The notes below the pieces were generated by a model that had not been told where the DNA came from, searched no databases, and saw only the letters and a list, made by a program, of their open reading frames with translations. The translations under genes and the position numbers were made by a program. A DNA stretch of 64,000 nucleotides from Streptosporangiaceae bacterium. GTDB lineage: Bacteria; Actinomycetota; Actinomycetes; Streptosporangiales; Streptosporangiaceae. The stretch covers positions 13,605 to 77,604 of the forward strand of contig DATIZP010000022.1 of NCBI GenBank assembly GCA_035517035.1, read 5' to 3'. Shown here one piece after another: positions 23,377 to 61,695 of this stretch (position 1 is the first letter of the stretch; each line of letters opens with the position of its first letter).

Positions 23377-24012
23377 ATCATCCGCCCAGACGTCACCGTC
23401 ATACTCGACGAGTTCGCCGCCGAGGATGAGGCGCTGCTGACGGCGCGCGCGAACGCCGAGCGGCTCGGCGGTGCCATGCCGGTGGCCCCGCTGACCGGTG
23501 CCACGCTGCGTTTCCTCGCGAGCGCGATCGGAGCCAGGGCCGTGGTCGAGATCGGCACCGGATTCGGCACCTCGGGTCTCTGGCTGCTGCGCGGCATGCG
23601 CCAGGGATCGGTGCTCACCAGCGTGGACACCGAGCCCGAGCATCATCGGCTGGCCAGGGCAGTGTTCGCCCAGGCCGGCTTCGGCTCCGCCAGGTACCGG
23701 CTGATCACCGGCCGCGCGCTCGAGGTGCTGCCCAGGCTTGCCGACGGCGCCTATGACCTGGTGTTCTGCGACGCCGACAAGCGCGAGTTCCCCGAGTACC
23801 TCGCCGCTGCGCTGCGCCTGCTCCGGCCTGGCGGGATCGTCGCCTTCGACAATGCACTGTGGGAGGACGAGAGCCCCAACATCGCCCACCGGGACCCTGA
23901 CTCGCTCGCCGTCGGCGAGCTTAGGGACCTGGTCGCCGCAGACAGCAGCCTGGTGCCGCTGCTGCTGCCCGTCGGCGACGGGCTGCTGGCCGCGGTCAAG
24001 CTGACCGCCTAG
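23377..24012 (+). CDS. class I SAM-dependent O-methyltransferase (caffeoyl-CoA OMT-like); probable ATC start
   Basis: ORF track gives 23476..24012. However, conserved family sequence (EDEALLTARANAERLG...VVEIGTGFGTSGLWLL) extends upstream of ATG 23476. The frame opens after stop 23317-23319 with no ATG/GTG/TTG. GGAGG at 23367-23371 lies 5 nt before ATC 23377. Confidence 0.7.
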   Translation: MIRPDVTVILDEFAAEDEALLTARANAERLGGAMPVAPLTGATLRFLASAIGARAVVEIGTGFGTSGLWLLRGMRQGSVLTSVDTEPEHHRLARAVFAQAGFGSARYRLITGRALEVLPRLADGAYDLVFCDADKREFPEYLAAALRLLRPGGIVAFDNALWEDESPNIAHRDPDSLAVGELRDLVAADSSLVPLLLPVGDGLLAAVKLTA

Positions 24013-24125
24013 CGCCTGTCCCGTAGATCGTGGGACCGGGTCGGTGGAGACGGGCCGCTGGCCGCGGTCAAGCTGACCGCTTAAGGCCTGTCCCGTAGAT
24101 CGCGGGCCTGTCCCGTAGATCGTGG
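23977..24125. repeat. junction duplications: 36-bp OMT gene 3-prime end plus element terminus repeated
   Basis: GACGGGCTGCTGGCCGCGGTCAAGCTGACCGCCTAG (23977-24012) recurs as GACGGGCCGCTGGCCGCGGTCAAGCTGACCGCTTAA (24047-24082). The terminus motif GCCTGTCCCGTAGATCG occurs three times (24014, 24086, 24106). Confidence 0.85.
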
Positions 24126-24205
24126 GGCTGGGTCGGTGGACCCAGGCCCTGATGGCTCGGCTTGTGGTCTGGCGCAGGCCGTCCCCGAGGCCGCCGTCGG
24201 CCGCC

Positions 24206-24327
24206 GCGCCCTCCACCACCCGGACGCGCCCTCCACCACCCGGACGCGCCCTCCACCGCCCCGGACGCGCCCTCCACCACCCGGACACGCCCTCCACCAC
24301 CCGGACACGCCCTCCACCACCCGGAGA
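24206..24327. repeat. 20-22 bp tandem repeat x6 inside element copy A
   Basis: GCGCCCTCCACCACCCGGAC repeated six times with minor variants. Copy B has only about one unit at the equivalent place. Confidence 0.9.
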
Positions 24328-24332
24328 TGATC

Positions 24333-24360
24333 TTGATGGATGTGGCGGATGTCCCAGAAT
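24333..24360 (+). promoter_or_regulatory. promoter-like motif TTGATG-N16-CAGAAT in the conserved core of element copy A
   Basis: Resembles the actinomycete housekeeping-sigma consensus TTGACN-N16-18-TAGAPuT. It lies in a 63-bp block identical in both copies. Confidence 0.35.
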
Positions 24361-24715
24361 ACGCAGTGGATGTGGCATCCATTCCACGGCCACCCAGGTG
24401 ATCACATCCAGTTTCGGCTGGTATGCGACGATCCGAGGGGCTGTGATCGCCCGGGCGCGGAGGCCGGCCGCGCTGTGCTCCGGGTTGTGCGTGGCTGGTG
24501 ATGCCGCGCGGCAGGGCGGTCGGTGCCGCGGAGATCCACGGGACAGGCGCTAGCCCCTAGGCCGGTCATGGCGGCGGGGGTCGAGCACTAAGGGACGGGC
24601 CCGCAGCAGGGCGAACAGCTCGCGGATCGGCCGGAGCTGCCACGTCCAGCCGCCCAGAGATCCCCTGACTAACCGGTCTTGCGCCTCGCCCGCCTAACGG
24701 TTTGTCGCAGGCCGG

Positions 24716-26287
24716 TTAGCTCACCTGCAGCCAGCGCAGCAGCAGCCTCGTGCCGAACCCGGTGGCGCCCGCCGAGATCTCGCCGTCGTCACCGGAGCTC
24801 CGCGCGGCGCCGGCGACGTCCAGATGCGCCCACGGCCGGGACCCGGCGAACTCCCTGAGGAACAGCGCGGCCAGGACCGACCCGGCTCCCTCGCTGCCCC
24901 TCGATACGTTGGCCAGGTCGGCCACCGGGGAGTCGAGCGCACTCCGGTAGTCGTCGGCGAGCGGCATCCGCCACAGCCGGTCGCCGCACGCCTCACCGGC
25001 CGCGATCAGGCCGGACGCCAGGTCGTCGCTGGTGGCGTACAGGGCGGCCCGGCTGCCGCCCAGCGCGATCCGCGCGGCTCCGGTGAGCGTCGCGATGTCG
25101 ATGATCGCGTCGGGCGCCAGGGTCGCGTCGGCATAGGCGATGGCGTCGGCCAGGACCAGCCGTCCTTCGGCATCGGTGTTCAGCACCTCAACGGTCCGGC
25201 CGCCGAAGCAGGTGATCACGTCGCCCGGCCGGTACGCCGAGCCGGATGGCATGTTCTCCGCCGCAGCGACCAGGCCCGTGACCTGGTGGGTCACGCCGAG
25301 CCTGGCGAGGGCCGACAGGACCGCGATCACCACGGCGCCGCCCGCCATGTCCGTCTTCATCGCCTTCATGCCGTCGTTCGGCTTGAGCGAGAGTCCGCCG
25401 CTGTCAAACGTGATGCCCTTGCCGACCAGGACCACATGCCGCTGCGCCGACGGCGGCTCGTACCGAAGCTCGATCAGCCGCGGCGGGCGCTCGGAACCCG
25501 AGCCCACGGCGGTGATGCCGCCGAACCCGGCGGCAGCGAGCTCCTGCTCGTTCCACACCCGGACGGCAAGTCCCGCCGGCGCGGCCGCGTCGCTGGCCGC
25601 GTCCGCGAGCCACTGCGGCGACTTGCGCACCGATGGGGTGTTGGCCAGGTCCCTGGCCAGGGCGGTCGCAGCGGCGACGACCGCCGCCTGGCCGATCGCG
25701 CCGTCCCGGTCGGCCTCGTTGCCGCCGACGGCGGTAGCTGGGGTGGCGGCAGCCGGCGCTCCCGGCGCCATGAGCAGCAGCACCGAGACCTGCCCGGCCT
25801 GCTCCTGCCCGCCCTGGTCCTGCACCGAATCTGACGACTTCTCCGAGTACCGGTAGGAACCGAGCATGACCCCCTCGGCGAACGCCCGTACCTGGTCGTC
25901 GTCCGCACCAGTCACCGCGGTGGCAACAGCGCTCTCGCCGGGCCGCAGCGCCCGGCCGAGCTCGGCGCCGGCCCTGCGCAGCTCGGGCGCCGACCTGTCG
26001 CCGACCCCGAGGAAAGCGACCCTGACGACATGCTGACCGGCCCGAGCGGGCACCTGGGTCAGCTGGCCGGGCTTGCCGGCAAGCTGCAGCGACCTGATCA
26101 CCTCGCGGGCCGGGACCGTCAGCGCGCCGTCCAGCGCCTCGTCGGCGACGATCTCACCGCCGGTGCCTACGGGCACCGCGACGAGATCCACCGGCTCGCC
26201 GGTGCCCGCTGCCGCGGCTCGTAGCAGGTCACCCGCGGTACGCAGATCCTCGCGGACGAGCGGTGTGACAGTGGCGATGGCAGGCAT
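24716..26287 (-). CDS. pepA: leucyl aminopeptidase (M17)
   Basis: VGKGITFDSGGLSLKP, MKTDMAGGA, NTDAEGRLVLADA. Confidence 0.92.
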   Translation of the reverse strand: MPAIATVTPLVREDLRTAGDLLRAAAAGTGEPVDLVAVPVGTGGEIVADEALDGALTVPAREVIRSLQLAGKPGQLTQVPARAGQHVVRVAFLGVGDRSAPELRRAGAELGRALRPGESAVATAVTGADDDQVRAFAEGVMLGSYRYSEKSSDSVQDQGGQEQAGQVSVLLLMAPGAPAAATPATAVGGNEADRDGAIGQAAVVAAATALARDLANTPSVRKSPQWLADAASDAAAPAGLAVRVWNEQELAAAGFGGITAVGSGSERPPRLIELRYEPPSAQRHVVLVGKGITFDSGGLSLKPNDGMKAMKTDMAGGAVVIAVLSALARLGVTHQVTGLVAAAENMPSGSAYRPGDVITCFGGRTVEVLNTDAEGRLVLADAIAYADATLAPDAIIDIATLTGAARIALGGSRAALYATSDDLASGLIAAGEACGDRLWRMPLADDYRSALDSPVADLANVSRGSEGAGSVLAALFLREFAGSRPWAHLDVAGAARSSGDDGEISAGATGFGTRLLLRWLQVS

Positions 26288-34357: not shown

Positions 34358-35440
34358 GTGGCACAAGCACGGTCGCGGCGGGTCGGCGTGGCGTCCGTCG
34401 TCGTCATCGCGCTCATCATCGCCGCGCTGGCGCTTGCCAAGTCCAGGCACGTCCGTTTCAGCCCTCCGATCGGGAGCGGATGCCTGGTCCACGCTCGCGG
34501 CTTTGACGTGCCACTGACGTCAGGACAGGCGGGCATCGCCTCGATCATCGCAGGCGTTGCCGCCCGCCGGTCCCTGCCCGTGCGGGCCGTGACGATCGCC
34601 TACGCGGCGGCGCTCCAGGAGTCCGACCTGGCCAACCTGCCGTACGGCGACCGGGACTCGGTCGGCGTCTTCCAGCAACGGCCATCGCAGGGCTGGGGCA
34701 CCAGGCGGGAGCTCCTCGACCCCGTGTACGCGACCCAGCGCTTCTTCGCCGCGCTCGTGGCCGTACCCAACTACCAGCATCTGCTGATCTACCAGGCCGC
34801 CCAGGCGGTGCAGCACAGCGCCGACGGCCAGGCCTACAGCCAGTACGCGGGCCAAGGCGCTGCGATGGCGACAGGCTTCACCGGACAGAGCCCGCACGAC
34901 GTGTGGTGCTGGTATGGCACCGGAGTCAGCGGGCCAGACCGGCTCGCCGCGGCCAGCAGGCAGCTGAACCGCGCGTTCGGCAGGCTGGCCGTCGACCATG
35001 TGGGCGACCCGACAGCGCGGGTGCACGTCCGCAGCCAGGCAGCGGGCTGGGCCGTCGCCGCCTGGCTGGTCACCCACGCGAGCAGCTACGGCATCAAGCA
35101 CGTGAGCTACCTGGGCTATCAGTGGACAGCGGCGGCCGGCCAGAAGGGCTGGATCAGACTCACGGGCAAGCACGCAAGCTCGCGCCCGTCCAGCACTCAC
35201 GGCAGTGCCGGCCTCGGCAGCGCCGGCCTCGGCAGCGCAGGCCCCGGCAGCACACGCCACGGCAGCACAGGCCCCGGCAGCACACGCCACGGCAGCACGC
35301 GCGACGGCAGCACACGCCACGGCGGTCATGACGGCACTGCTCATGACGGCACTGTGCATGACGGCACTGCTCATGGCACCGCGCGCCACGGCGACCATGG
35401 CCGCGCCAGGTCAGACGGCGGCACAGTGACGTTCGGCTGA
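34358..35440 (+). CDS. conserved membrane-anchored/secreted hypothetical protein with repetitive C-terminus
   Basis: N-terminal TM helix and a conserved core (PYGDRDSVGVFQQRPSQGWGT). The last 65 aa or so are encoded by a 15-bp tandem array (35201-35400). Confidence 0.7.
   Translation: MAQARSRRVGVASVVVIALIIAALALAKSRHVRFSPPIGSGCLVHARGFDVPLTSGQAGIASIIAGVAARRSLPVRAVTIAYAAALQESDLANLPYGDRDSVGVFQQRPSQGWGTRRELLDPVYATQRFFAALVAVPNYQHLLIYQAAQAVQHSADGQAYSQYAGQGAAMATGFTGQSPHDVWCWYGTGVSGPDRLAAASRQLNRAFGRLAVDHVGDPTARVHVRSQAAGWAVAAWLVTHASSYGIKHVSYLGYQWTAAAGQKGWIRLTGKHASSRPSSTHGSAGLGSAGLGSAGPGSTRHGSTGPGSTRHGSTRDGSTRHGGHDGTAHDGTVHDGTAHGTARHGDHGRARSDGGTVTFG
35201..35400 (+). repeat. 15-bp in-frame tandem array (about 13 units) at the 3-prime end of the CDS
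   Basis: Units include GGCAGYGCCGGCCTC, GGCAGCACACGCCAC and GGCACTGCTCATGAC, encoding GSAGL/GSTRH/GTAHD pentapeptides. Confidence 0.9.
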
Positions 35441-47639: not shown

Positions 47640-49478
47640 ATGCCGGGCGAGCCTCCCGCGGTGCTGCGGATCGCTAACTGCAGCGGGTTCTACGGCGACC
47701 GGCTGTCCGCGGCGCGCGAGATGGTCGACGGCGGCCCGATCGACGTGCTAACCGGCGACTGGCTGGCCGAGCTGACCATGCTGCTGCTCGGCAAGGCCAT
47801 GCTGAGCGGGCGGCCAGGGTATGCCAGGACGTTCCTGACCCAGCTCGAGCAGGTGCTGCCGACCTGCCTGGAACGCGGGATCAAGATCGTAGCCAACGCG
47901 GGCGGGCTCGATCCGGCCGGGTGCGCCGCAGCGGTCACCGAACTGGCCAGGCGGGCCGGGCTCTCCCCCGTGGTCGCCCACGTCGAGGGCGATGACCTGC
48001 TCGCCAGGCTTCCCGAGCTGCAGCAGGCCGGGCACCCGCTGGCCAACTCCGACACCGGGGAACGGCTCGCGCAGGCGGGGGTGACCCCGCTGACCGCCCA
48101 CGCCTACCTGGGCGGGCTGCCGATCGCCAGGGCGCTGGACGCCGGGGCCGACGTGGTGGTCACCGGCCGGGTGACCGACGCCGCGCTGGTCACCGGGCCG
48201 GGGATCTGGCGGTTCGGCTGGGACGGCAGTGACCTGGACGCGCTGGCAGGCGCGGTGGTGGCGGGCCACGTGATCGAGTGCGGCTGCCAGGCGAGCGGGG
48301 GGAACTACTCGTTCTTCGCCGAGGTGCCTGACCTGGCCGCGGCCGGCTTCCCGCTGGCCGAGCTGGCCGCCGACGGGTCGGCGGTGATCACCAAGCATCC
48401 GGGCACCGGCGGCCAGGTGTCGGTGGGCACCGTGACCGCCCAGCTGCTCTACGAGATCGGCGGCCCGCGCTACCTCAACCCCGACGTCACGGCGCGCTTC
48501 GACACGATCGCGGTCGAGCAGGCCGGGCCAGATCGGGTCAAGGTGAGCGGCGTCCGCGGCGAGCCGCCGCCCGGCACGCTCAAGGTGTCGCTGAACTACG
48601 CCGGCGGATACCGGAACTCGATGATCCTGGCGATCGAAGGACTCGACGTGGCCGCCAAAGCCCGGCTGGCCGAGCAGACGCTCTGGTCCCGCATCGATGG
48701 CGGCAGGAGCGCCTTCGAGACCGCTGACGTGGAGCTTGTCGGGTCCGATCCGGCACTGCTGCGGATCACCGTGCTCGACCAGGACAAGGCCAAGGTGGGC
48801 CGCGCGTTCTCCGCGGCCGTGGTCGAGACGGCGCTGGCCAGCTATCCGGGGTTCTACGCGCTCACCCCGCCCGGCGACGCGTCCATGTTCGGGGTCTACT
48901 GGCCGACGCAGGTTCCCGCCGAGTTCATCTGCACCCGGGTCCTGATCGACGGCACGCCGGTCTGGTCAGGGCCGGCTCGCCTGGAACCACCCGAGCCAAC
49001 CGCCGCAGGGCCGACCGGCGCAGGGCCGACCGCCGCTGAGACAGGCTCCGCTGAGACAGGCGCCACTGAGACGGGCAGGCAACCGGCCGCGCGAGCCGGC
49101 CGGGCCCCTGAGTCCGCACCGACCAGGCGGGTACCGCTCGGCACGATCGCCGGCGCCCGCTCGGGCGACAAGGGCGGGAACGCCAACGTCGGGGTGTGGG
49201 TCCGCACGCCCGAGGAGTTCGCCTGGCTGGACGGCTACCTCACCACTGGGCGCCTCGGCGAGCTGGTCCCCGCGGTCGCCGGGCTGCCGGTGCAGCGGTA
49301 CCCGCTGCCGAACCTGCTCGCGATCAACTTCGTCGTGGTCGGGCTGCTCGGCCGTGGCGTCGCGGCGAGCACGAGGCTCGACCCGCAGGCCAAGGCGCTC
49401 GGCGAGGAAGTGCGCGCCGCGCTCGCCGACATCCCGGTCGCGCTGCTCGACCTGGCCGGGGCCGACGCCGGCGCCTAG
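47640..49478 (+). CDS. acyclic terpene utilization AtuA family protein (DUF1446)
   Basis: Part of ORF 47460..49478. ATG 47640 lies 1 nt after the hydratase stop. RIANCSGFYGDRLSAAREMVDGGPIDVLTGDWLAELTM is the AtuA N-terminal signature. The C-terminal domain has SGDKGGNANVGVW. Confidence 0.8.
   Translation: MPGEPPAVLRIANCSGFYGDRLSAAREMVDGGPIDVLTGDWLAELTMLLLGKAMLSGRPGYARTFLTQLEQVLPTCLERGIKIVANAGGLDPAGCAAAVTELARRAGLSPVVAHVEGDDLLARLPELQQAGHPLANSDTGERLAQAGVTPLTAHAYLGGLPIARALDAGADVVVTGRVTDAALVTGPGIWRFGWDGSDLDALAGAVVAGHVIECGCQASGGNYSFFAEVPDLAAAGFPLAELAADGSAVITKHPGTGGQVSVGTVTAQLLYEIGGPRYLNPDVTARFDTIAVEQAGPDRVKVSGVRGEPPPGTLKVSLNYAGGYRNSMILAIEGLDVAAKARLAEQTLWSRIDGGRSAFETADVELVGSDPALLRITVLDQDKAKVGRAFSAAVVETALASYPGFYALTPPGDASMFGVYWPTQVPAEFICTRVLIDGTPVWSGPARLEPPEPTAAGPTGAGPTAAETGSAETGATETGRQPAARAGRAPESAPTRRVPLGTIAGARSGDKGGNANVGVWVRTPEEFAWLDGYLTTGRLGELVPAVAGLPVQRYPLPNLLAINFVVVGLLGRGVAASTRLDPQAKALGEEVRAALADIPVALLDLAGADAGA
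49001..49075 (+). repeat. 15-bp in-frame tandem repeat x5 in the AtuA-like linker
   Basis: CGCCGCAGGGCCGAC CGGCGCAGGGCCGAC CGCCGCTGAGACAGG CTCCGCTGAGACAGG CGCCACTGAGACGGG. Confidence 0.9.
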
Positions 49479-49553
49479 CGCCTGCCCCGTAGATCTCCGC
49501 GGGCACCGACGGCTCTACCGCGCGCCATCACCGGCCATGGACAACCCGGAGCC

Positions 49554-49610
49554 GCGCGGCTGGCCTCCGCGCCGCGCGGCTGGCCTCCGCGCCGCGCGGC
49601 CGCGGCCGCC
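49554..49610. repeat. 20-bp tandem repeat x2.5 inside element copy B
   Basis: CCGCGCGGCTGGCCTCCGCG twice plus a partial unit. It is single-copy at the equivalent place in copy A (near 24445-24470). Confidence 0.85.
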
Positions 49611-49703
49611 CGGCCGAGCACCCCCGCCCTGATCCCGGCATACCAGCCGAAACCGCACGTGATCACCTGGGTGTCGGTGGAATGGATGCCACATCCACTG
49701 CGT

Positions 49704-49731
49704 ATTCTGGGACATCCGCCACATCCATCAA
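49704..49731 (-). promoter_or_regulatory. same promoter-like motif in element copy B (minus strand)
   Basis: ATTCTG-N16-CATCAA on the plus strand, which is TTGATG-N16-CAGAAT on the minus strand. Identical to copy A. Confidence 0.35.
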
Positions 49732-50028
49732 GATCATCTACGGGCGGTACGGGGCGCGGTGGCCGGCGGCGGCCCCGGGGACGGCCCGCGCCAGACCACA
49801 AGCCGGAGCCATCAGGACCTGGCTCCACCGACCCAGCCCCACGATCTACAGGACAGGCCCCGGCCGGCGCCTTCGCCGTAACCCACCCACGGTGGCCGGG
49901 ATGGTCCTGGAGCGCAATATCAGCTGAGTATCACTTTGGTACGATGTGACCGGCGCAGTTCGGCCGGGGCGGCGTCCTTCACGTGACCTAGACGGCGCTG
50001 GCCGGCACGCCGCATCCCGGGGGCATGA

Positions 50029-59662: not shown

Positions 59663-60715
59663 ATGCACCACGTCGTCATGCATCACATGACCTTCACCGA
59701 GGCCATCGTCGTCGGGTTCATCCAGGGCGTGACGGAGCTGTTCCCGGTGTCCAGCCTCGGTCACAACGTGCTGATCCCGGCCCTGGTCGGCGGCAGCTGG
59801 GCCAGGGACCTGAACGTTGCTACACCGGAGTCGCCGTACCTGGCGTTCATCGTGGGCCTGCATGTGGCGACCGCGATCGGGATCACGGTGTACTTCTGGC
59901 GTGACTGGGTGCGGATCATCGGCGGCTTCTTCACCTCGTTCCAAGCCGACCTGCGGCACCCGATCAAGACCAGGACCTCGGACCAGAAGCTGGCCTGGAT
60001 GATCGTGCTCGCCACGATCCCGGTCGGCCTGGTCGGCCTGGCGTTCGAACACAAGTTCCGCGTCATCTTCGGCGTGCCAAGCCGGGCGGCGATCTTCCTG
60101 GCGATCAACGGCGTGATCCTCTACGCCGGGGAGCGCTTCCGCACCCGCAAGTCGCTGGCCGCCGACCAGCAGGTGGTGGCCGAGCGGGAGCAGCCGCAGC
60201 CGCAGCCCGAGCCCGAACCCGAGCCCGAGCGCGAGCTGGTCGGGGCCGCCCGGGTGCCTGGAGCCCACTCCTCCGGCCAGCGGGCCGTGCGGCAACAGGA
60301 GATCACGACCGCGATCGCCTCTGACCGCAGGATCACCGCGTTCGGCTACGCCTCGGCCGTGCTCATCGGCGCCGCCCAGATCCTGGCGCTGCTGGCCGGG
60401 ATCAGCCGGGACGGCGTCACGATGGTCGCCGGCATGTTCCGCGGCCTGTCCCGCGAGGACGCGGCGAGGTTCGCGTTTCTGCTCGCGACGCCGGTCATCC
60501 TCGCGGCCGGCATGCTGAAGGTTCCCGACCTGCTCGGGCACCTGGGCAACGGGATCCGCCCGCAGATCCTGGCCGGCAGCGTGGTCTCCGGCATCGGAGC
60601 CTACGTGTCGGTCAGGTTCCTTATGAAGTACTTCCGCACCAGAACCCTGTACCCGTTCGCGATCTACTGCCTAATCTTCGGCCTAGGCAGCTACATCTAC
60701 CTGACCGTGAAGTAG
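59663..60715 (+). CDS. uppP: undecaprenyl-diphosphate phosphatase with about 50-aa loop insertion
   Basis: ORF 59591..60715. ATG 59663 follows GAGAGG; ATG 59678/59687 are alternatives. Motif 1 is GVTELFPVSSLGH. Motif 2 is the variant AGISRDGVT. A QP/EP-repeat insertion lies at about 60154-60330. Confidence 0.8.
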   Translation: MHHVVMHHMTFTEAIVVGFIQGVTELFPVSSLGHNVLIPALVGGSWARDLNVATPESPYLAFIVGLHVATAIGITVYFWRDWVRIIGGFFTSFQADLRHPIKTRTSDQKLAWMIVLATIPVGLVGLAFEHKFRVIFGVPSRAAIFLAINGVILYAGERFRTRKSLAADQQVVAEREQPQPQPEPEPEPERELVGAARVPGAHSSGQRAVRQQEITTAIASDRRITAFGYASAVLIGAAQILALLAGISRDGVTMVAGMFRGLSREDAARFAFLLATPVILAAGMLKVPDLLGHLGNGIRPQILAGSVVSGIGAYVSVRFLMKYFRTRTLYPFAIYCLIFGLGSYIYLTVK

Positions 60716-60838
60716 CGGCCCAGGCCCAAGCCCAGGCCCAAGCCCAGGCCCAAGCCGCGGCCCAGGCCCAGGCCCAAGCCGCAGCCGGCCGCGGCCGGCC
60801 GCGCTCGCGCCGCGCCGCGCCTGGGCCTGGGCCTGGCC
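60715..60838. repeat. hexanucleotide microsatellite (CARGCC)n plus downstream inverted complement
   Basis: About 12 units of CAGGCC/CAAGCC/GCGGCC run from the uppP stop codon onward. GCCTGGGCCTGGGCCTGGCC at 60819-60838 is complementary to them. Confidence 0.9.
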
Positions 60839-61512: not shown

Positions 61513-61695
61513 CACCGCGCGCCCCTATCTGACACGGGCGCCTCGCCTGACACCGGCGCCCCGCCCCTGACACCAGCGCCCCGCTCCGACACTCGCGCCC
61601 CGCCCTGATACCCGGCGCCCCGCCCCTGACACCAGCGTCCCGCCCCGACACTCACGCCTCGCCCTGACACCAGCGCCGCGCCTGACATCGGCCCG
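61503..61695. repeat. about ten degenerate 18-20 bp tandem repeats (consensus CCCCGCCCCTGACACCAGCG)
   Basis: A CTGACAC-type core recurs at 61509, 61528, 61546, 61566, 61585, 61604, 61625, 61644, 61662 and 61681. The array lies between convergent genes and the period is not a multiple of 3. Confidence 0.85.

Follow-up and report, generated by a model that had tools for sequence, protein, structure and literature searches.

The window, by which we mean the whole 64-kb stretch of DNA that was analysed, belongs to an uncultured Streptosporangiaceae MAG, a soil actinobacterium, and carries two copies of the same non-coding repeat, one behind an O-methyltransferase gene (23476-24012, + strand) and the other behind a gene of the AtuA family (about 47640-49478, + strand). 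A repeat finder and pairwise alignment confirmed that the copies, which lie in inverse orientation, can be aligned over their whole length. The repeat finder gave aligned blocks of 150 nt (87%), 65 nt (88%), 55 nt (95%) and 51 nt (86%), and in the pairwise alignment the gaps between the copies corresponded to internal tandem repeats. Both copies, like the rest of the family described below, end in 16-nt terminal inverted repeats (TIRs), GCCTGTCCCGTAGATC. The imperfect TIRs that had been predicted at both loci were borne out by the motif GCCTGYCCYGTRGATC, which occurred six times in the window, always within these two loci, against a chance expectation of 0.04. As had also been claimed, each copy follows directly on the TAG stop codon of a plus-strand gene (24010-24012 and 49476-49478), this TAG being part of a flanking CTAG, and the same junction, GCCTAGCGCCTG(T/C)CCCGTAGATC, follows both stops. 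The features of the two copies are as follows.

24009-24012: left flanking CTAG of copy 1, the target or duplicated target
24013-24549, + strand: copy 1 of the MITE, full extent, 537 bp, left end partly duplicated in tandem
24014-24029, + strand: outermost left TIR of copy 1, GCCTGTCCCGTAGATC
23974-24117, + strand: 72-bp tandem duplication, two units (repeat finder and alignment of six assemblies)
24085-24130: 20-bp duplication in copy 1 (TRF)
24205-24325, + strand: internal minisatellite of copy 1, six copies of the 20-bp unit CGCGCCCTCCACCACCCGGA (TRF)
24323-24386, + strand: core of copy 1, 64 nt, GGAGATGATCTTGATGGATGTGGCGGATGTCCCAGAATACGCAGTGGATGTGGCATCCATTCCA
24533-24548, - strand: right TIR of copy 1, GCCTGTCCCGTGGATC on the minus strand
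24550-24553: right flanking CTAG of copy 1
49475-49478: flanking CTAG of copy 2
49479-49859, - strand: copy 2 of the MITE, inverse orientation, 381 bp
49480-49495 (+ strand) and 49843-49858 (- strand): TIRs of copy 2
49551-49600, - strand: distinct internal 20-bp tandem repeat in the other arm of copy 2, 2.5 copies (TRF)
49678-49741, - strand: core of copy 2, one base different from that of copy 1, at the 5' end (GTAG vs GGAG)

The original prediction had placed the start of copy 1 at 24105. The real start is 24013, and the earlier coordinate corresponded to the innermost of three left TIRs, which begin at 24014, 24086 and 24106 (the further two occupying 24086-24101 and 24106-24121). The span given for copy 2, 49479-49858, held except for its last base, since the copy runs to 49859, and at this far end CCGG stands in place of CTAG. 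The simple form of copy 1 was seen in two strain variants (L002 and L005), in which a 465-bp element reads CTAG, then C-GCCTGTCCCGTAGATC...GATCCACGGGACAGGC-G, then CTAG.

Neither copy had been credited with an open reading frame, and we agree: there were no Pfam matches, and the open frames that are present are by-products of nucleotide conservation. Likewise, tblastn with an IS5 transposase found nothing in the window, consistent with the earlier statement that no transposase lies nearby. No tRNA or tmRNA was found by scanning, and Rfam gave 0 matches at the gathering score over the window and noise only at E <= 10 for the locus. When folded, the arms paired into a rod-like structure with paired TIRs (z = -3.4 and -2.7).

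Empty sites and strain polymorphism

A contig of the closest relative is syntenic with the window and lacks the element at both positions, which gives the empty sites expected of a mobile element. At each of these positions the relative has a single CTAG, which forms the stop codon; the spacing between the methyltransferase gene and pepA is 11 nt there vs 703 nt in the window, and the AtuA stop reads CCTAG with no element after it. The copy 1 site is not a clean filled/empty pair, as the filled allele has 160 nt more unique DNA between the element and pepA, and copy 2, with CTAG on one side only, adjoins a 1.5-kb segment that is missing relative to the closest relative.

Alignment of the six assemblies showed that the 72-bp unit, in which the final 35 nt of the methyltransferase gene are joined to the left TIR and 21 nt of arm sequence, is present 1, 2 or 3 times depending on the strain. 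The three left TIRs of copy 1 result from this tandem duplication plus the further 20-bp duplication. The number of units in the copy 1 minisatellite also differed among strains. Replication slippage after insertion would lengthen and shorten the internal 20-bp repeats, and at copy 1 it would also have altered the 72-bp unit of gene end and TIR. With three kinds of repeat-number polymorphism, the family is usable as a strain marker. The copy 1 minisatellite has a resemblance to TraB/clt-like 8-mers (GACCCGGA), but we dropped this idea, as the unit is absent from copy 2 and from most other copies.

Distribution of the family

A scan of metagenomes with the core sequence detected 99 stretches at about 69 distinct sites, nearly all of them from three metagenome samples of one project, so the repeat has the further copies that would be looked for in a transposable element. 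The copies were gathered with an exact 19-mer from the core, which is therefore invariant by construction, and the conservation statistics given below rest on the other 45 nt. A TIR search of all fetched loci, made to find an autonomous IS, yielded only an IS relic (see below) and another copy, with a one-base change in the core (L026:3160-3449). Certain single contigs hold two to three copies. The ends of the element are sharp: they cluster in two query ranges, 103-116 and 574-586, with the bulk at 107-112 and 577-581, respectively, and these are the CTAG..CTAG boundaries. The length has a median of about 360 bp (range 201-510 bp).

The elements are intergenic and lie mostly at gene 3' ends (76/103 neighbouring gene ends were tail-facing), for the most part between convergent genes. 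A stop codon adjoins 16 of the 79 recognised termini; these comprise 6 left and 10 right termini, that is, both orientations relative to the abutting gene. Outside the metagenomes, a core 23-mer was found in only one MAG among the GTDB species representatives, the whole element, searched by blastn against plasmids and phages, had chance matches only, and two core sub-patterns gave no matches to viral contigs. The family is previously undescribed. It breaks assemblies, two contigs (L004 and L006) ending within the element, and generates spurious ORFs in high-GC MAGs; the known ends and the CTAG rule permit it to be masked.

Insertion at CTAG and the association with stop codons

Across the family, CTAG flanked 15 of 41 left termini and 24 of 38 right termini, and one-base variants of CTAG accounted for many of the remaining flanks. 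The tetranucleotide is rare, with a frequency of about 0.1% in the window (58 sites in 64 kb), and is about 3-fold under-represented in the host genome, which has 72% G+C. The conserved CTAG at the flanks fits a target-site duplication. We infer a duplication of 4 bp rather than a 2-bp duplication of TA, two outcomes that look identical here, as CTAG is palindromic and a TA duplication with one more TIR base would give the same sequence.

The transposase would recognise the 16-17-nt terminal inverted repeats, (G/C)GCCTGTCCCGTAGATC, and would insert the element into CTAG, a palindromic target that would then stand on both sides. Of the CTAG sites that the genome tolerates, a considerable fraction would be TAG stop codons preceded by C, and it would be for this reason that many copies sit precisely on a stop codon. 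Duplication of CTAG would restore the stop, and the gene product would therefore be unchanged. The original prediction had regarded the stop codon as effectively part of the repeat terminus; this appearance is a consequence of the choice of CTAG as target in DNA where CTAG is rare. A CTAG-specific transposase, depletion of CTAG, frequent TAG stops and a duplication that restores the stop would together explain how a mobile element can seem to be 'fused' to stop codons.

The stop-codon association through CTAG, the affiliation with the IS5 family and the uneven conservation with its 64-nt core all lie beyond what had been noted before.

Relationship to IS5-family elements

In an un-annotated 1018-bp IS on plasmid pBCI1-1 of Pseudonocardia sp. 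EC080619-01 (NZ_CP012186.1:99371-100388, locus L106), the end on the 3' side of the transposase matched the left end of the MITE, with 81% over 53 nt in blastn (E = 1e-3) and E = 1.6e-9 when the family profile was used in nhmmer. This IS is flanked by CTAG/CTAA and encodes DUF4096 and DDE_Tnp_1. Among eight more actinobacterial IS5-family loci, 6 had clear terminal repeats, and 5 of those 6 were flanked by CTAG or by CTA/TAG. Published actinobacterial IS5-group elements make 4-bp CTAG direct repeats (PMC9241763). In the metagenome population of the host itself we detected a decayed IS5-like relic with the same terminus (L061:10178-10461); a search of about 1 Mb of host-population sequence for an intact autonomous partner with matching TIRs found this relic only.

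These results suggest that the element was mobilised in trans by a specific transposase, which would be an IS5-family enzyme with DUF4096 and DDE_Tnp_1. Of the two labels that the original prediction had offered, that of a non-autonomous, MITE-like transposon stands and that of a REP/BIME-like repeat does not. We put at about 0.85 the probability that the repeats are a multi-copy MITE derived from an IS5-family IS, mobilised in trans and inserted at CTAG, with a core under selection.

The 64-nt core

Conservation within the MITE is uneven. Identity to the consensus was 0.99-1.0 in the core, 0.89-0.90 in the arms and 0.89-0.93 in the TIRs, and the arms were nearly star-like, with a nearest-neighbour divergence of 13%. 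The core contains the palindrome TGGATG-N3-CATCCA and an upstream degenerate copy of it, 30 bp away from centre to centre, with an AT-rich box between them. We read it as a putative protein-binding or promoter-operator module acting at the DNA level, in which the two 15-bp TGGATG-N3-CATCCA-type sites would surround a -10-like AT-rich box. The core would be held by purifying selection stronger than that acting on the TIRs. A literature search for the core palindrome found no paper. We infer both the function and the origin of the core. Its source may be the 5' end of the parent IS, but the case for this is weak, since local alignment scores fell within the range of shuffled controls. By eye, the core makes an attractive remnant of the transposase 5' end or of the DUF4096 'LTD.QW' motif (GAATACGCAGTGG vs GAATACTCAGTGG in L107); this was rejected on the same alignment scores and for want of a Pfam signal, and is kept as a lead only.

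What the selection on the core acts on can be read in several ways. The one that survives best, although we give it somewhat less than an even chance, is that function resides in the core itself, the MITE being just one of the carriers that spread it: the core would be a putative host cis element, bound by a regulator or a nucleoid protein or acting as a small bidirectional promoter-operator, which has reached some 70 or more places between genes and is maintained by selection in every one of them. The core is about 10-fold less divergent than the arms and also less divergent than the TIRs, it has the operator-like layout described above, and in one copy (L018) it forms a perfect 24-bp palindrome. 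At an orthologous locus (L001 vs L075) it was identical at 65/65 positions while the flanks were 68-73% identical, and at about 9 sites, as well as in a different MAG, it occurs without recognisable TIRs or arms. Gene starts were also slightly more frequent on the left side (17/48 vs 10/55, p = 0.07), although this orientation bias is not significant. Against such a role, the genes around the core sites belong to no consistent family, and the scan for sigma-70 promoters and terminators gave no promoter that passes the consensus and no terminator. Moreover, the collection is biased by the exact 19-mer, and some of the core conservation could also arise under a birth-death model in which active lineages are selected.

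Tentatively, the core may be a functional module that is selected at dozens of sites, as a candidate binding platform, a promoter-operator or the template of a short RNA, and that was spread by the MITE through the genome of this uncultured Streptosporangiaceae lineage and also survives as core only at orthologous loci in another actinobacterial MAG. If this is true, a bacterial transposon would have wired a regulatory or structural site into many loci. The core exceeds in conservation the very TIRs that are needed for movement, and if it is used at the level of the host the family would be a natural system for MITE-seeded regulatory or protein-binding sites in actinobacteria.

A rather unlikely explanation is that the core serves transposition in cis, as a putative subterminal site for the transposase or a host factor from the left end of the parent IS, so that copies losing it cease to propagate. 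A degenerate TIR-like sequence, GCGCCCTGTACCGCCCGGAGATGATC, lies immediately 5' of the core and resembles the 20-bp minisatellite unit, TTGATCAGTGGATGCGG stands immediately inside the left IR of the L106 IS, and in short-arm subfamilies the TIR directly adjoins the core. Transposition cannot do without the TIRs, however, and yet these are conserved less well than the core and could not be recognised at about 40% of the sites, the core is conserved at the stable orthologous locus L001/L075, and the similarity to the IS 5' end was no higher than in shuffled controls.

It is very improbable that the copies form a family of structured non-coding RNA genes or a host repeat of the REP/BIME/REPIN type moved by a RAYT transposase. 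Their intergenic position, mostly at gene 3' ends (76/103), and their stable rod-like fold would suit such a reading; however, there was no Rfam match at gathering or relaxed thresholds, and RNAalifold of 56 distinct copies on both strands gave only an invariant hairpin, with no covariation available. The copies also face either way with respect to the gene they abut (6 left, 10 right), and with 200-500 bp, 16-nt TIRs, CTAG flanks and end homology to the IS5 family they are unlike a REP palindrome of 20-40 nt.

Least credible of all is a family of small-protein genes with a 24-codon ORF (M-I-L-M-D-V-A-D-V-P-E-Y-A-V-D-V-A-S-I-P-x-T-P-R), which is intact at about 50/66 sites, has GGAG 9 nt upstream of its second in-frame ATG and retains the terminal Arg through AGG, AGA and CGA codons, but whose third codon positions are as invariant as the first and second, so that the constraint acts on nucleotides, and which has no Pfam match, lies in a core that is open in all three forward frames and is shifted in frame in L001/L075 by a 10-nt indel just past the core, beyond which the nucleotides are still conserved.

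Comparison with known repeats

Mycobacterial repeats of the MIRU type consist of tandem 40-100-bp units between the genes of an operon and have small ORFs that overlap the flanking stop and start codons. This assignment was rejected, since the units found here measure 20 bp and are enclosed in a TIR-bounded element, most often between convergent genes. REP/BIME/REPIN sequences are, as here, abundant intergenic repeats and often lie between convergent genes. They are imperfect palindromes of 20-40 nt without TIR or target-duplication architecture and depend on a Y1 (RAYT) transposase; the window family showed none of these features, and no Y1 transposase was seen among the window ORFs inspected.

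Other MITEs offer parallels. The Correia elements (CREE/NEMIS) of Neisseria are MITEs of about 100-160 bp that have TIRs and a duplicated TA-containing target and are dispersed in intergenic DNA. Functional sites lie within them (an IHF site, promoter elements), and they are transcribed together with the genes next to them. They differ from the window family in sequence, host and presumed parent, they contain no minisatellite, and their functional sites are short, in contrast to a 64-nt invariant block. BrickBuilt of Porphyromonas gingivalis is, like the window element, a MITE with an internal minisatellite of variable number, with units of about 20-23 nt; according to its abstract it is always intergenic, and promoter activity in both directions has been reported for it (PMC4596501). 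The phylum it comes from is unrelated, as is its sequence, and its minisatellite makes up the body of the element, unlike that of the window element. The abstract describes neither an association with CTAG or stop codons nor an ultraconserved non-repeat core (PMC4596501).

The closest relationship is with actinobacterial IS5-family ISs of about 1.0 kb, such as that of NZ_CP012186.1 and ISMysh01 of Mycobacterium shottsii (PMC9241763). Unlike them, the window element has no transposase, measures 200-540 bp and carries minisatellites, and the 64-nt core is a feature of the MITE that was not detectable in the IS5-family ISs examined. The MITE shares with these ISs the flanks or direct repeats of CTAG, the terminal sequence (AGCCTGTCCCGTGGATC vs GGCCTGTCCCGTAGATC) and, at the transposase-3' end, about 35 subterminal nt.

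Two copies of one element at TAG stop codons

The original prediction that region 24105-24549 and the reverse complement of 49479-49858 align along their whole length was borne out by both a repeat finder and pairwise alignment. The repeat finder joined the two copies by four blocks of 51-150 nt each, with 86-95% identity, and in the pairwise alignment the large gaps corresponded to internal tandem repeats only. Across the 64 kb there are six occurrences of the motif GCCTGYCCYGTRGATC, where chance would give 0.04, and none of them lies outside these two loci. Each copy comes after the TAG stop codon of a gene on the plus strand, as had been proposed, and the junction sequence is identical at both. 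Given the full-length homology, the confinement of the motif and the shared TAG junction, the observation holds with one correction: the element predicted at 24105-24549 is real, but its true start is 24013, since 24105 is the third of three copies of the left terminal inverted repeat (TIR). The G+C content is 68-75% along the whole length of the window.

Features of the two loci (window coordinates)
23476-24012, plus strand: O-methyltransferase gene upstream of copy 1
24013-24549, plus strand: copy 1
24205-24325: internal 20-bp minisatellite of copy 1, six units
ending at 49478, plus strand: AtuA-family gene upstream of copy 2
49479-49859, minus strand: copy 2

We aligned to the window five further assemblies with an identical methyltransferase and detected three states of the copy-1 left end. 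The loci L002 and L005 contain the simple element (...GCC TAG/C-GCCTGTCCCGTAGATC ... GATCCACGGGACAGGC-G/CTAG, slashes marking its ends), the window and L004 carry one additional 72-bp unit, and L003 and L006 carry two. The unit consists of the last 35 nt of the methyltransferase gene, the TIR and the beginning of the arm, as we call the sequence between the core (the central 64 nt) and a TIR. The copy number of the 20-bp minisatellite also varied among these assemblies; in copy 2 the 20-bp repeat is a different one and lies in the other arm. Two contigs terminate within the element, as is typical with repeats that break assemblies. Between copy 1 and the pepA stop lie 160 nt of unique non-coding DNA (24554-24716), absent from the relatives and with no match elsewhere among the fetched loci; since it includes another CTAG, at 24557, it may be left over from an earlier insertion.

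Elsewhere in the window, about 10 units of 15 nt repeated in tandem (CxCGGCAGCxCAGGC-like, 35183-35332) presumably form a pentapeptide repeat within a coding region. A 59-bp tandem duplication with 92% identity (61553-61670) lies near a 6/12-nt repeat, GCCCAGGCCCAA (60710-60786).

Family size, ends and empty sites

Among GTDB species representatives the exact core 23-mer was found in one genome only, the MAG of an uncultured Actinomycetota bacterium (L001), and the viral contigs, plasmids and phages searched yielded nothing relevant. Further copies, as expected of a mobile family, were detected in the JGI metagenome collection, where a core 19-mer search returned 99 stretches, 98 of them from three samples (Ga0335077, Ga0335078 and Ga0335081). 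Clustering by flanks gave approximately 69 distinct sites, with up to three copies on single contigs and element lengths of 201-510 bp (median 360 bp). When the simple element with its flanks was compared with all copies by BLAST, similarity ended sharply at the CTAG..CTAG boundaries. Over the distinct sites, 15 of the 41 left ends and 24 of the 38 right ends have CTAG as the tetranucleotide just outside the terminus, and many of the other flanks were one-base variants of CTAG. The proposed check by folding produced a rod with paired TIRs (z = -3.4 and -2.7).

The protein names of the closest database relatives place the host among uncultured Streptosporangiaceae; a protein with the annotation 'MAG TPA ... 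[Streptosporangiaceae bacterium]' matches the window's AtuA protein at 100% identity. Of the other genomes, ERZ25039507 is the nearest, and its contig_9125 is collinear with the window (methyltransferase 97% and AtuA 90% identical at the protein level; loci spaced 25.9 kb there and 25.5 kb in the window). In this contig the methyltransferase-pepA gap is 11 nt (...GCCGCC TAG CTCGCCAGCCGT...) versus 703 nt in the window, and in more distant relatives the two convergent genes lie 8-19 nt apart. Its AtuA gene ends ...GTACC TAG CTCG and the element is absent. Both sites of this syntenic closest relative are therefore empty, with a single CTAG exactly at the insertion point. Two caveats apply. On its pepA side the filled allele of the first site additionally contains the 160 nt of unique DNA. 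At the second site, the CTAG-less end of copy 2 abuts a breakpoint (49859-49900 compared with L122:4864-6440, the closest-relative locus): the relative has a 1.5-kb segment there, carrying a 475-aa gene that belongs to no known family, and this segment is missing from the window. This breakpoint may reflect a transposon-adjacent deletion in the window or a gain in the relative.

CTAG target choice and stop codons

The window contains 58 CTAG sites where its base composition predicts 164, a depletion of about 3-fold. With genes called crudely from GC3, at least 12 of these sites fall exactly on stop codons and about 23 are intergenic. The same call gave a TAG stop in about 18 of the 47 window genes, which is high for a 72% G+C actinobacterium while CTAG is depleted overall. 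An element that is restricted to CTAG and tolerated only outside coding sequence is therefore expected often to lie on TAG stops, where the gene-side flanking CTAG preserves the stop codon. Of the 79 termini recognised across the family, 16 directly adjoin a stop codon (six left, ten right), and among the 103 gene ends next to the elements 76 are 3' ends. The stop-codon association is thus explained by CTAG target choice.

Probable IS5-family parentage

An 87-nt consensus left-end query matched two Pseudonocardia plasmids from query position 1. The matched region is the end of an un-annotated insertion sequence (IS), L106:3005-4022, which was also recovered by the family profile HMM (E = 1.6e-9).

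Insertion sequence sharing the left end
NZ_CP012186.1:99371-100388 (Pseudonocardia plasmid pBCI1-1; also NZ_CP010990.1), 1018 bp: un-annotated IS5-family IS

CTAG lies on one side of this IS and CTAA on the other. The ORF, on the minus strand (domains DUF4096 and DDE_Tnp_1), terminates within the inverted repeat (...TVDVASIRIWLRDPVP-stop), and the copy is probably a pseudogene, since the N-terminal part of the transposase contains an in-frame TAG. A tblastn search with this transposase matched 138 records from actinobacterial plasmids, with 'IS5 family transposase' as their annotation. Clear terminal repeats were present at six of eight further IS5-family loci fetched (L111 and L112 had no convincing ends), with CTAG or CTA/TAG flanks at five of the six; the sixth, L107, has GCCTAG.../...CGCCTAA immediately outside the repeats. 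Four-base CTAG direct repeats are described for actinobacterial IS5-group elements (PMC9241763). In the fetched host-population sequence no autonomous partner was found, only a decayed IS5-like relic (L061:10178-10461) that keeps only transposase residues 1-23 and 225-279 and has a terminus as in the MITE (...CCCATGATCTACAGGACACGCC/TTAA).

A nearly invariant core

The core is the sole part of the element that is possibly more than routine. In anchored alignments of all copies its 64 nt, GGAGATGATCTTGATGGATGTGGCGGATGTCCCAGAATACGCAGTGGATGTGGCATCCATTCCA, were almost invariant.

Identity to consensus, 28 distinct full-length copies
Core, 45 positions not set by the search pattern: 0.99-1.0
Arms: 0.89-0.90
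TIRs: 0.93 and 0.89

Singleton variants numbered 190 in the arms versus 5 in the core, and the arm genealogy is near star-like (mean pairwise divergence 19%, mean nearest-neighbour divergence 13%). A profile search of about 1 Mb of fetched sequence added one copy only without the exact 19-mer, with a single core change. The core also occurs without recognisable arms or TIRs at about nine sites. One of these, in the Danish MAG (L001), has L075 and L094 as orthologues; core identity at this locus is 65/65, and the non-coding DNA is 73% identical upstream and 68% downstream, with many indels. At L018:4381-4434 the 3' half of the core forms a perfect 24-bp inverted repeat, TGGACTGGATGCCACATCCACTGC-AAATAA-CGCAGTGGATGTGGCATCCAGTCCA, in a CTAG...CTAG interval of about 145 bp; a DEAD/ResIII-type helicase gene lies about 130 nt downstream of it. 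At the core-only loci L042, L046, L021, L031 and L001/L075 the core has tandem repeats beside it whose units are not related to the repeat units in the window, and an extra CGGGCAT motif directly after the core is common to L018, L042 and L046. This pattern suggests several sub-families built on one core.

A putative role in DNA-level binding or regulation is the most likely reading of the core. It contains a perfect TGGATG-TGG-CATCCA inverted repeat with a degenerate copy 30 bp upstream; the two enclose an AT-rich box, whose only variation in divergent members is (A/T)ATA(C/T). Judged by eye, this layout is that of a candidate small promoter-operator or two-site binding platform; no promoter passed a consensus promoter scan. 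Genes neighbouring the core sites share no common family, and the orientation bias of the element relative to them is non-significant (p = 0.07). The main rival to binding or regulation is that the core is a putative cis-acting sequence for transposition, a reading weakened by the lower conservation of the TIRs. The core is preceded by a degenerate sequence resembling the TIR, and in the L106 IS TTGATCAGTGGATGCGG lies just inside the left inverted repeat, which suggests that the core may derive from the parent IS, at its 5' end; core similarity to the IS 5' end was not above shuffled controls, and Pfam gave no signal for such a remnant. A 24-codon ORF across the core is intact at most sites. 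We rejected a small protein: third codon positions are as invariant as first and second, and a 10-nt indel between L001 and L075 directly after the core shifts the frame while the downstream nucleotides remain conserved, so the constraint is on nucleotides. No Rfam family matched the core, and it showed no covarying structure.

Comparison with known systems

The element has every testable defining feature of a MITE (TIRs, CTAG flanks, copies and empty sites), in agreement with its prediction as a non-autonomous, TIR-bounded element, and, an intact partner in the same genome aside, of an IS5-family derivative. The alternative label 'REP/BIME-like' was not sustained, and the element is neither a MIRU nor a known RNA. 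It is a new family within a known kind. The closest analogue for its mechanism is the actinobacterial IS5-family ISs with CTAG repeats. For the minisatellite-inside-MITE architecture, the closest analogue is the BrickBuilt MITE of P. gingivalis, which is reported to be intergenic and to have promoter activity (PMC4596501).
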